Positions 53,425 through 53,855 of a stretch of 64,000 nt of DNA are shown here, in pieces. The notes below the pieces were generated by a model. That model saw only the letters and a list, made by a program, of their open reading frames with translations. It did no database searches and was not told the DNA's origin. This DNA is from Octopus vulgaris (lineage: Eukaryota), in contig OX597820.1 in the NCBI GenBank assembly GCA_951406725.2, forward strand, positions 87,668,001-87,732,000, given 5' to 3'. A program made the translations under genes and the position numbers. Position 1 is the first letter of the stretch; each line of letters opens with the position of its first letter.

Positions 53425-53855
53425 ATTAGATAAAAATAGCTATGGTCGGTGTATGGGGACTCCACACGTAATCTTATGGAAGGTCGTAGAACAGCTGGGA
53501 CCCTACATCAATAGGAGTAAACGTTGCAAGCTGTGCATAGCTAAACAGGTGAGAATATTAAAGGGCTTCCTCAACCCAGGGTACATCTTAAATTCCAGGA
53601 CAGAAACATTCTCACCCTGCTTACACTTGAGGAGATTCTTACTGAAGTCCTGGAACTCACAAACCAACCACGTCAACTACAGATAGTTGTCCGATTGTCA
53701 ACAAGTAGCTATGAGGTCTTTTCTCCCTCCACTTTGAAGAGAGGTCATAGGCCACTGGCCATTAGGGTCTGAAGAAATGTTATAAAGCTTAGTGCTTTAT
53801 GAACATGAAACCCATGGTAACCCCATACACCCGACCATAGTTATCTGTATCTAAT
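53425..53855 (+). mobile_element. Penelope-like element 3' fragment (GIY-YIG C-terminus plus pLTR) with terminal inverted segment
   Basis: ILWKVV...PYINRSKRCKLCIAK...ILNSRTE...CLH resembles the PLE endonuclease C-terminus; about 34-bp inverted repeats 53425-53458 and 53821-53855. Confidence 0.78.
53765..53823 (+). ncRNA. Type I minimal hammerhead ribozyme motif
   Basis: gggt-CUGAAGA-(a)-stem II atgtt/ataaagc:gctttat/aacat-GAAA-cc cat gg-UA-accc; predicted cleavage after 53819. Confidence 0.7.

Follow-up and report, generated by a model that had tools for sequence, protein, structure and literature searches.

An octopus KIF21 intron carries a relic, probably inert Penelope-like hammerhead, while a conserved stop-containing exon upstream of it likely yields a WD40-less kinesin with a predicted membrane anchor

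The window, by which we mean the whole 64-kb stretch of octopus DNA that was analysed, carries exons of a KIF21A-like gene on the + strand, identified by matching its exons one by one to proteins of O. vulgaris, O. sinensis and O. bimaculoides; the WD40 exons of this gene lie 5-25 kb beyond the window. An earlier note on this DNA had described a Penelope-derived hammerhead ribozyme on the sense strand of a KIF21 intron, between a candidate truncating exon at 51041 and the next coding exon at 54474, and had proposed that its self-cleavage biases output towards a WD40-less kinesin. The sense-strand placement was borne out by the protein matches, which, together with the earlier note's candidate, give the following exons.

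48323 to 48365, + strand: last exon common to the KIF21 isoforms ahead of the alternative cluster; encodes ETESISSGSTSPVD and has a phase 2 donor; from octopod isoforms
51041 to 51095, + strand: the earlier note's candidate truncating exon (ENSIDSDFETLASKTII and then a stop), with a fitting AG and phase; unsupported
51483 to 51549, + strand: conserved stop-containing KIF21 exon, (N)DFCCFAAVVLVCFIALELLWS and then a stop; phase 2 acceptor, 21 codons, ending in TGA
51852 to 51885, + strand: alternative exon A of KIF21, encoding MNVKKCTSPVR and used by 6 of the 16 octopod isoforms
54474 to 54546, + strand: alternative exon B of KIF21, encoding MFDRQR...KKAK and used by 10 of the 16 octopod isoforms

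Exons A and B never occur together in the 16 octopod isoforms, and exon A has an alternative donor after 51879 and a homologue in protein P0017. The two exons that had been placed on either side of the hammerhead fared differently: the one at 54474 is the coding exon B, but the one at 51041 is absent from all 39 KIF21 proteins (39/39), among which its best local score is 35, as against a self score of 81. The truncating exon is unsupported, though not disproved, and both exons that lie closer to the hammerhead on its upstream side, 51483-51549 and 51852-51885, had been missed.

The hammerhead itself sits between exons A and B, 2.3 kb downstream of the stop-containing exon, in the orientation of the KIF21 sense strand:

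53765 to 53823, + strand: type I hammerhead motif (descriptor match, fold and family alignment)

All of its parts are where the earlier note had read them. Stem I is formed by GGGT (53765-53768) and ACCC (53820-53823), the core segments are CTGAAGA (53769-53775) and GAAA (53807-53810), and CCATGG (53812-53817) runs into GTA (53817-53819), with a putative cut after 53819. Stem II, at 53777-53806 with 12 bp and a single bulge, also appears in the minimum free energy (MFE) fold; in the register of the wider family, it spans 53776-53806 with a family-invariant bulged A53777. Stem III comprises 53810-53818, its palindrome being broken at T53815. The motif is the sole hammerhead descriptor match on both strands of the 64-kb window, and such a match arises in 2 of 60 dinucleotide shuffles. 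The earlier note had also suggested a search with the Rfam hammerhead models; when run, this gave no match to the motif, neither at the gathering score nor at E<=10; apart from a 5S rRNA elsewhere in the window, the scan picked up nothing but miRNA noise, driven by microsatellites, near the motif. The hammerhead motif is real.

It is also far from alone. The earlier note had taken it for a single copy, but the genome holds at least 368 exact-core copies, comprising 216 copies of the exact pattern (0 in the control) and 152 further exact-pattern copies of a sister subfamily with a compensatory CCT-N-AGG. The 441 bases around the motif have at least 48 genome matches (40 of 657 candidates were scored), with the best siblings 67-89% identical. 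A tail pattern gave 788 matches in the genome and 2 in the control, and a piece of the endonuclease yielded 8797 candidates at first look, a figure that is no measure of copy number. The flagged hammerhead is an ordinary one, one among hundreds of decayed retrotransposon hammerheads.

To describe the family, 53 of 57 segments were aligned, the four with large indels being left out and many of the rest having been selected by pattern. The helices are paired in 87% of alignment cells, a level reached by 0 of 500 shuffles in a comparison that the relatedness of the copies inflates. Position 53776, whose A had been read as an extra base, forms a pair with 53806 in all but four of the 52 copies (48), and 21 copies show double changes there, which trace to a few subfamilies rather than to many independent events; the 53777-53806 register of the earlier note is paired in 28 of 52. 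The invariant bulge is A53777, found in 44 of 45 siblings (51 model matches less the window copy, one duplicate and four partial copies; 28 of them had been chosen because they resemble the window copy). A G10.1-C11.1 closing pair is found in 1 of 52 copies, and the closing pair covaries instead among A-U, G-U, U-A and U-G. An outer stem I helix is weakly visible, with 68% of cells paired. Stem III of the family is an in-register 4+1+4 palindrome, ACCC-N-GGGT (CCC-N-GGG), found in 167 of the 216 pattern copies; the palindromic CCAUGG of the earlier note is present as letters, but the functional palindrome is the in-register one, and CCAUGG is an off-register by-product, because T53815 replaces the family G. 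Since a one-base loop cannot close, the compensation seen in CCT-N-AGG needs two molecules, and the compensatory palindrome therefore supports dimer action; we infer that the family ribozyme acts as a dimer or with an element protein. Three traits, namely the bulged A, the covariation of the closing pair and the compensatory palindrome for dimers, mark the family as a small variant among hammerheads.

In the available part of PMC4209133, the hammerheads of metazoan Penelope-like elements (PLEs) are likewise type I, with a short helix I, a long helix II and a palindromic helix III for dimers, and they likewise occur as dispersed, heterogeneous relic copies with opposite-strand pairs nearby. Unlike those described there, the octopus family is without the typical G10.1-C11.1 pair and has a covarying closing pair, carries its invariant unpaired A after the first pair rather than before it, and combines a helix II of ~12 bp with no Rfam match; this comparison is with the paper's available text, and its supplementary alignments may already contain a variant like this one. 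No description of an octopus PLE hammerhead was found in the literature searched, most subscription journals lying outside that search.

The hammerhead belongs to an insertion that spans 53425 to ~53907 and lies in a TA microsatellite, with (TA)n at 53415-53423 directly before its first feature:

53425 to 53458, - strand: the inverted pLTR arm, which repeats the element's short 3' end in 5'-truncated form and complements 53821-53855
53456 to 53683, + strand: what is left of the C-terminal part of the endonuclease ORF after 5' truncation; its motif is of GIY-YIG type
53856 to 53907, + strand: optional tail extension of ~50 nt, ending before a degenerate TA/CA microsatellite

The inverted arm matches 53821-53855 in 31 of 35 columns, with a duplex energy of -45.8 kcal/mol. 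The same short 3' end is found in sibling copies, which terminate either there or at the long (tail) end and then run into microsatellite. The position just 3' of a GIY-YIG-like remnant given in the earlier note holds, 39 of 66 residues of the remnant being identical to the longer sibling frame L080. Neither the window remnant nor a sibling frame of 321 aa has a GIY-YIG match in Pfam, and a protein search with a 47-aa piece of the endonuclease gave no match. The longer siblings L005, L030, L078 and L080 carry reverse transcriptase (RT) remnants (LYRDD) and a CxCX5C linker upstream of the endonuclease, with LYRDD and LDVTL remnants recognisable, at motif level only, upstream of YIG in L078 and L080; the window copy is truncated before the linker. 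By eye, the stretch that separates the VVY half from the YIG half lacks a CxxC in both L066 and L080, so that the CCHH motif is absent from the endonuclease core. A search for ADKT (DKT in place of DKG) found none in copies that are themselves decayed or truncated.

A (TA)n target, an inverted truncated copy and a tail are thus all present, and an inverted-copy-plus-tail layout is described for Penelope-like elements in the available part of 10.1101/2021.04.23.441226. Because of the CxCX5C linker, the RT remnants, the lack of an internal CxxC, the TA target and the hammerhead, the element fits the Hydra clade of C-terminal EN+ PLEs, to which, at motif level, it probably belongs; as far as that text is available, these elements also have, after the RT, a CxCX5C linker and then an endonuclease that lacks an internal CxxC, together with a hammerhead, a (TA)n target and an inverted truncated copy plus tail. 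Unlike the Hydra clade as described there, the Octopus copies have a ~110-150-aa Asn/Ser/Thr-rich insert that splits the GIY-YIG motif, and a ~50-nt tail. The insert is of low complexity and was seen between the GIY-YIG halves of L066, L076, L080 and L083. The Penelope origin and the hammerhead identity put forward in the earlier note are supported by the family copies and by the RT and endonuclease remnants in siblings.

A possible clustering of element 5' ends at the putative cut site was also considered and then set aside. The inverted arm begins 2 nt past the cut, and 5 of 55 tail-selected copies are without stem III upstream, corresponding to ~3 independent events near the cut site; among the first 100 of the 788 tail matches, two breaks lie near the cut site and two further upstream. 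Other element breaks lie near -12, -23 and -25, GGG microhomology accounts for some junctions, and long-range extents from this break analysis are unusable, one reference having held two copies. The two arms (53425-53458 and 53821-53855) could form a 34-bp pre-mRNA duplex with A-C and A-G mismatches, a possible ADAR substrate; RNA editing is heavy in octopus.

Within the KIF21 pre-mRNA, this hammerhead copy is probably inert, because its palindrome is broken, the inverted arm is predicted to occlude it and no partner lies nearby. T53815 stands where 35 of 45 siblings have G, and the predicted in-register stem III dimer reaches -3.9 kcal/mol for the window copy, whereas three siblings come to between -11.6 and -12.1; the off-register CCAUGG duplex is at -9.8 kcal/mol. 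In nearest-neighbour folding, which takes in no Mg2+, tertiary contacts or proteins, the predicted active fraction at 37 °C is 5e-2 for the bare 59-nt motif, 2.9e-3 with local flanks (53740-53860) and 1.3e-8 with the inverted arm (lower still at 15-20 °C), which is predicted to pair with 53821-53855 and to take three of the four stem I 3' bases. While the transcript end is near 53826 and the arm has not yet closed, the predicted fraction is 3.7e-3. By predicted active fraction, the window copy ranks 11th among 30 intact-core copies. No partner copy was found in 94 kb (the 64-kb window plus 30 kb downstream), which contains one model match only.

The pattern of change in the window copy is largely that of its siblings. 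It departs from the column-commonest letters at 17 positions in 107 nt (12 transitions, 4 CpG-type), and siblings with as few or fewer changes number 30 of 45 for stem II, 21 of 45 for stem III and 20 of 45 for the flanks. An intact core is found in 23 of 45 siblings, and 12 of 45 have stem I and stem III intact as well. The window copy has its core and stem I unchanged, which 4 of 45 siblings equal and for which this copy was chosen; its stem II is still fully paired, and its outer stem I helix is hit at 53834. The conservation relative to siblings that the earlier note had named as a check is seen, then, in the core and stem I, but elsewhere the copy shows sibling-like decay.

It is rather unlikely, in our estimate, that the copy retains weak residual activity that leaves KIF21 unaffected, whether as a monomer or because two transcripts dimerise aberrantly through CCAUGG. 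The intact core and the predicted active fraction of the bare motif speak for this, as do the dimeric or extended minimal hammerheads (min-HHRs) that cleave weakly at high Mg2+ in the available part of PMC4209133; in the same text, single min-HHRs show no detectable cleavage, and in its context the active fraction of the window copy is predicted to drop by orders of magnitude. The PAc HHR cleaves only with the element protein, and no RNA-seq ends are found at its site (PMC11167929). A co-opted hammerhead, cleaving the nascent intron with the help of host or element proteins and so raising WD40-less or exon A forms, strikes us as very improbable. Such a ribozyme may work as a terminator past the poly(A) site of the stop exon or as a block to exon B, and it would be well placed for either, in sense orientation, 1.2 kb past the AATAAA at 52576 and 654 nt before exon B. 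Its unchanged core and stem I and a predicted short co-transcriptional window before the inverted arm closes would suit the idea, and the CPEB3 ribozyme is a known intronic ribozyme tuned to splicing (available part of PMC10919898). Against it stand the broken palindrome, the lack of a partner, the predicted occlusion, the absence of the G10.1-C11.1 pair, the hit in the outer stem I helix and the sibling-like decay elsewhere, and a protein comparison indicates that the same isoforms are made in decapodiform-type assemblies. Cleavage before commitment to splicing would probably be negligible at the elongation rate that we assume, because the next acceptor is only 654 nt away. The proposal of the earlier note that self-cleavage biases output towards a WD40-less kinesin finds no footing in a copy that has lost its palindrome, is predicted to be occluded by the arm and has no partner in 94 kb.

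Ultraconserved intronic hammerheads occur in amniotes. The window hammerhead resembles these, and the CPEB3 HDV-like ribozyme (available part of PMC10919898), in being a sense-strand intronic motif upstream of an exon. Unlike the CPEB3 ribozyme, which that text describes as conserved across species, with a half-life of 2-3 min that matches transcription to the next exon, it is one among hundreds of decaying copies and is predicted to be occluded.

WD40-less KIF21 proteins do exist, as the earlier note had supposed, but they likely arise through exon 51483-51549 and not through the hammerhead or the 51041 exon. A search with the region before the exon cluster led to P0019, a 1107-aa KIF21 without WD40 that ends ...SPVEN-DFCCFAAVVIVCFIALELLWS. 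In P0019 and P0035, motor and coil domains are present and WD40 is absent. The tail is carried by four assembled decapodiform-type proteins, P0019/P0021 in one cluster and P0035/P0037 in the cluster of the cuttlefish KIF4_21_27, with the tailed isoform accounting for 2 of 7 members of one cluster and 2 of 8 Logan members of another. The stop-exon peptide of the window is identical at 21 of 21 residues to P0035/P0037 and at 20 of 21 to P0019/P0021, the sole difference among the tails being a conservative I/L, and the Sepia (cuttlefish) gene model P0026 contains its first 10 residues. Over the whole protein, octopus and cuttlefish KIF21 are identical at 1123 of 1618 positions (69%); among single exons, the best neighbour reaches 43 of 52, exon B 13 of 25 and exon A 6 of 11.

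The stop exon is single-copy in the genome and occurs in 0 of 16 annotated octopod isoforms. Two sequences downstream of it, at 52160 and 52576 (AATAAA), are candidate poly(A) signals. The longest contigs of full-length forms measure 3450-4333 nt for a 3.3-kb CDS and therefore appear not to run through the WD40 exons, a weak indication since contigs break. The exon is presumably used in Octopus, as a last exon. Outside coleoids, a search with the tail gave two matches, the KIF21 protein P0001 and an unrelated repeat protein; an Atlas search gave no usable match, which implies neither absence nor novelty. The split between octopods and decapodiforms dates back some 270 million years, and the two arms of the insertion differ at 4 of 35 columns. 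Because decapodiform-type assemblies use the same exon, and in view of these two figures, the WD40-less isoform is likely to be older than the hammerhead insertion. Inside 51483-51513, a GT after a Leu codon is a possible phase 0 donor for an in-frame 10-residue cassette, P0026 leaving the exon at that point.

The stop-exon peptide is strongly hydrophobic, with a KD19 of 2.59 for the window exon; C-terminal values are 2.59-2.63, as against <=1.52 elsewhere in P0019, where the only hydrophobic segment lies within the last 30 residues. It has three cysteines and a continuous hydrophobic run and forms the protein C-terminus, as in a tail anchor; the helix is somewhat weakened by a Glu close to where the hydrophobic stretch ends. 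We predict that, in the isoform made with the stop exon (~1090 aa), a C-terminal anchor, transmembrane or lipidated, stands in for the WD40 domain. The bolder claim, that coleoids make a membrane-anchored member of the kinesin-4 family (in which we place KIF21) by means of a conserved alternative last exon that swaps WD40 for a cysteine-rich transmembrane tail anchor, we judge to be evenly poised.

Identity of the peptide with a single I/L change fits constraint at the RNA level as well as it fits a protein anchor. The exon might accordingly be an ultraconserved poison exon or RNA element that lowers KIF21 via NMD or by binding splicing factors, with the hydrophobic peptide a by-product of UG-rich sequence and the hammerhead still a relic; this is the chief alternative, and we regard it as possible though doubtful. 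Identity at 21 of 21 residues is unusually high for a generic anchor, TGC/TGT repeats, which we take to resemble the YGCY motif, are abundant, and the exon is missing from 16 of 16 octopod annotations; all of this would suit a poison exon. What tells against one is that the isoform is common among the assembled proteins of both clusters, that the I/L difference is conservative within a continuous hydrophobic run and, weakly, that the contigs of the full-length forms do not appear to extend through the WD40 exons.

For the predicted anchor, the nearest analogue is Dictyostelium Kif9, a kinesin anchored in the nuclear envelope by a C-terminal transmembrane domain (available part of PMC7140473). 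In both, the cargo-binding domain of the kinesin motor is replaced by one hydrophobic segment at the C-terminus; unlike the KIF21 form, in which the anchor is predicted and arises by an alternative-exon swap, Kif9 is, in that part of the paper, a Kin-I depolymeriser with a constitutive anchor. The tailed KIF21 lies outside the Kin-I family, having an N-terminal motor with KIF21A-like coil domains, and its likeness to Kif9 is by analogy. Kif9 was the sole integral-membrane kinesin encountered in the available parts of the literature searched, and no membrane-tailed or WD40-less KIF21 isoform was found there, most subscription journals being outside the search.

Taken together, we hold with reasonable confidence that a relic, likely Hydra-clade hammerhead is likely inert here and that WD40-less KIF21 likely arises independently of it, by splicing to a conserved stop exon whose peptide is a predicted membrane anchor. 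KIF21 transcripts would be spliced from 48365 to 51483-51549 whatever the state of the hammerhead, and the stop exon would serve as the last exon, with 52160 and 52576 as its candidate poly(A) signals. The hydrophobic tail may then insert post-translationally, like a tail anchor, and the anchored motor would carry or tether membrane directly and not through a WD40 domain. At the hammerhead, pairing of the inverted arm with 53821-53855 would remove three of the four stem I 3' bases, and neither the dimer partner nor the element protein of the family ribozyme would be available at the KIF21 intron.

The stop exon, found while the idea of the earlier note was being tested, outweighs the ribozyme in importance. 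Animal kinesins normally reach membranes via adaptors or lipid-binding domains; if the anchor is real, attachment of this motor to organelles would be direct and adaptor-free, and a spliced KIF21 anchor would offer a direct test of the trade-off among motor autoinhibition, WD40-dependent functions and membrane attachment. If the exon is a poison exon instead, it would be a clean invertebrate example of ultraconserved poison-exon control. A human KIF21 counterpart is linked to neurodevelopmental disorders in the available part of the source.

Several further features of the window were noted in passing. The intron before exon B looks conserved in cuttlefish at 54420-54473 (P0026 ...CLPCNLHGLIS- into MFERQ; window ...CACPVNPHGLTS-), and the exon B acceptor has a branch-point-like CTAAC a few bases before the AG and a poor pyrimidine tract, possibly as part of the choice between exons A and B. 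At 51591-51690 and 54390-54450, before exons A and B respectively, (TAC)n is followed by a similar CCTGTGCCTG-like stretch, which may reflect duplication or a shared splicing element. An optional KIF21 exon, VRQCCQGLQKPIP, lies at 61499-61537, its cysteine pair being kept in cuttlefish as well (VRPCCKK). The 5S rRNA match (80.8 bits) at 34530-34648 falls in a KIF21 intron, has several broken pairs and is likely a pseudogene or the head of a SINE. Finally, remnant frames that by eye resemble mariner/Tc1 transposase were seen at 23399-24018 (- strand), 47369-47626 (+ strand) and 55784-56771 (- strand).
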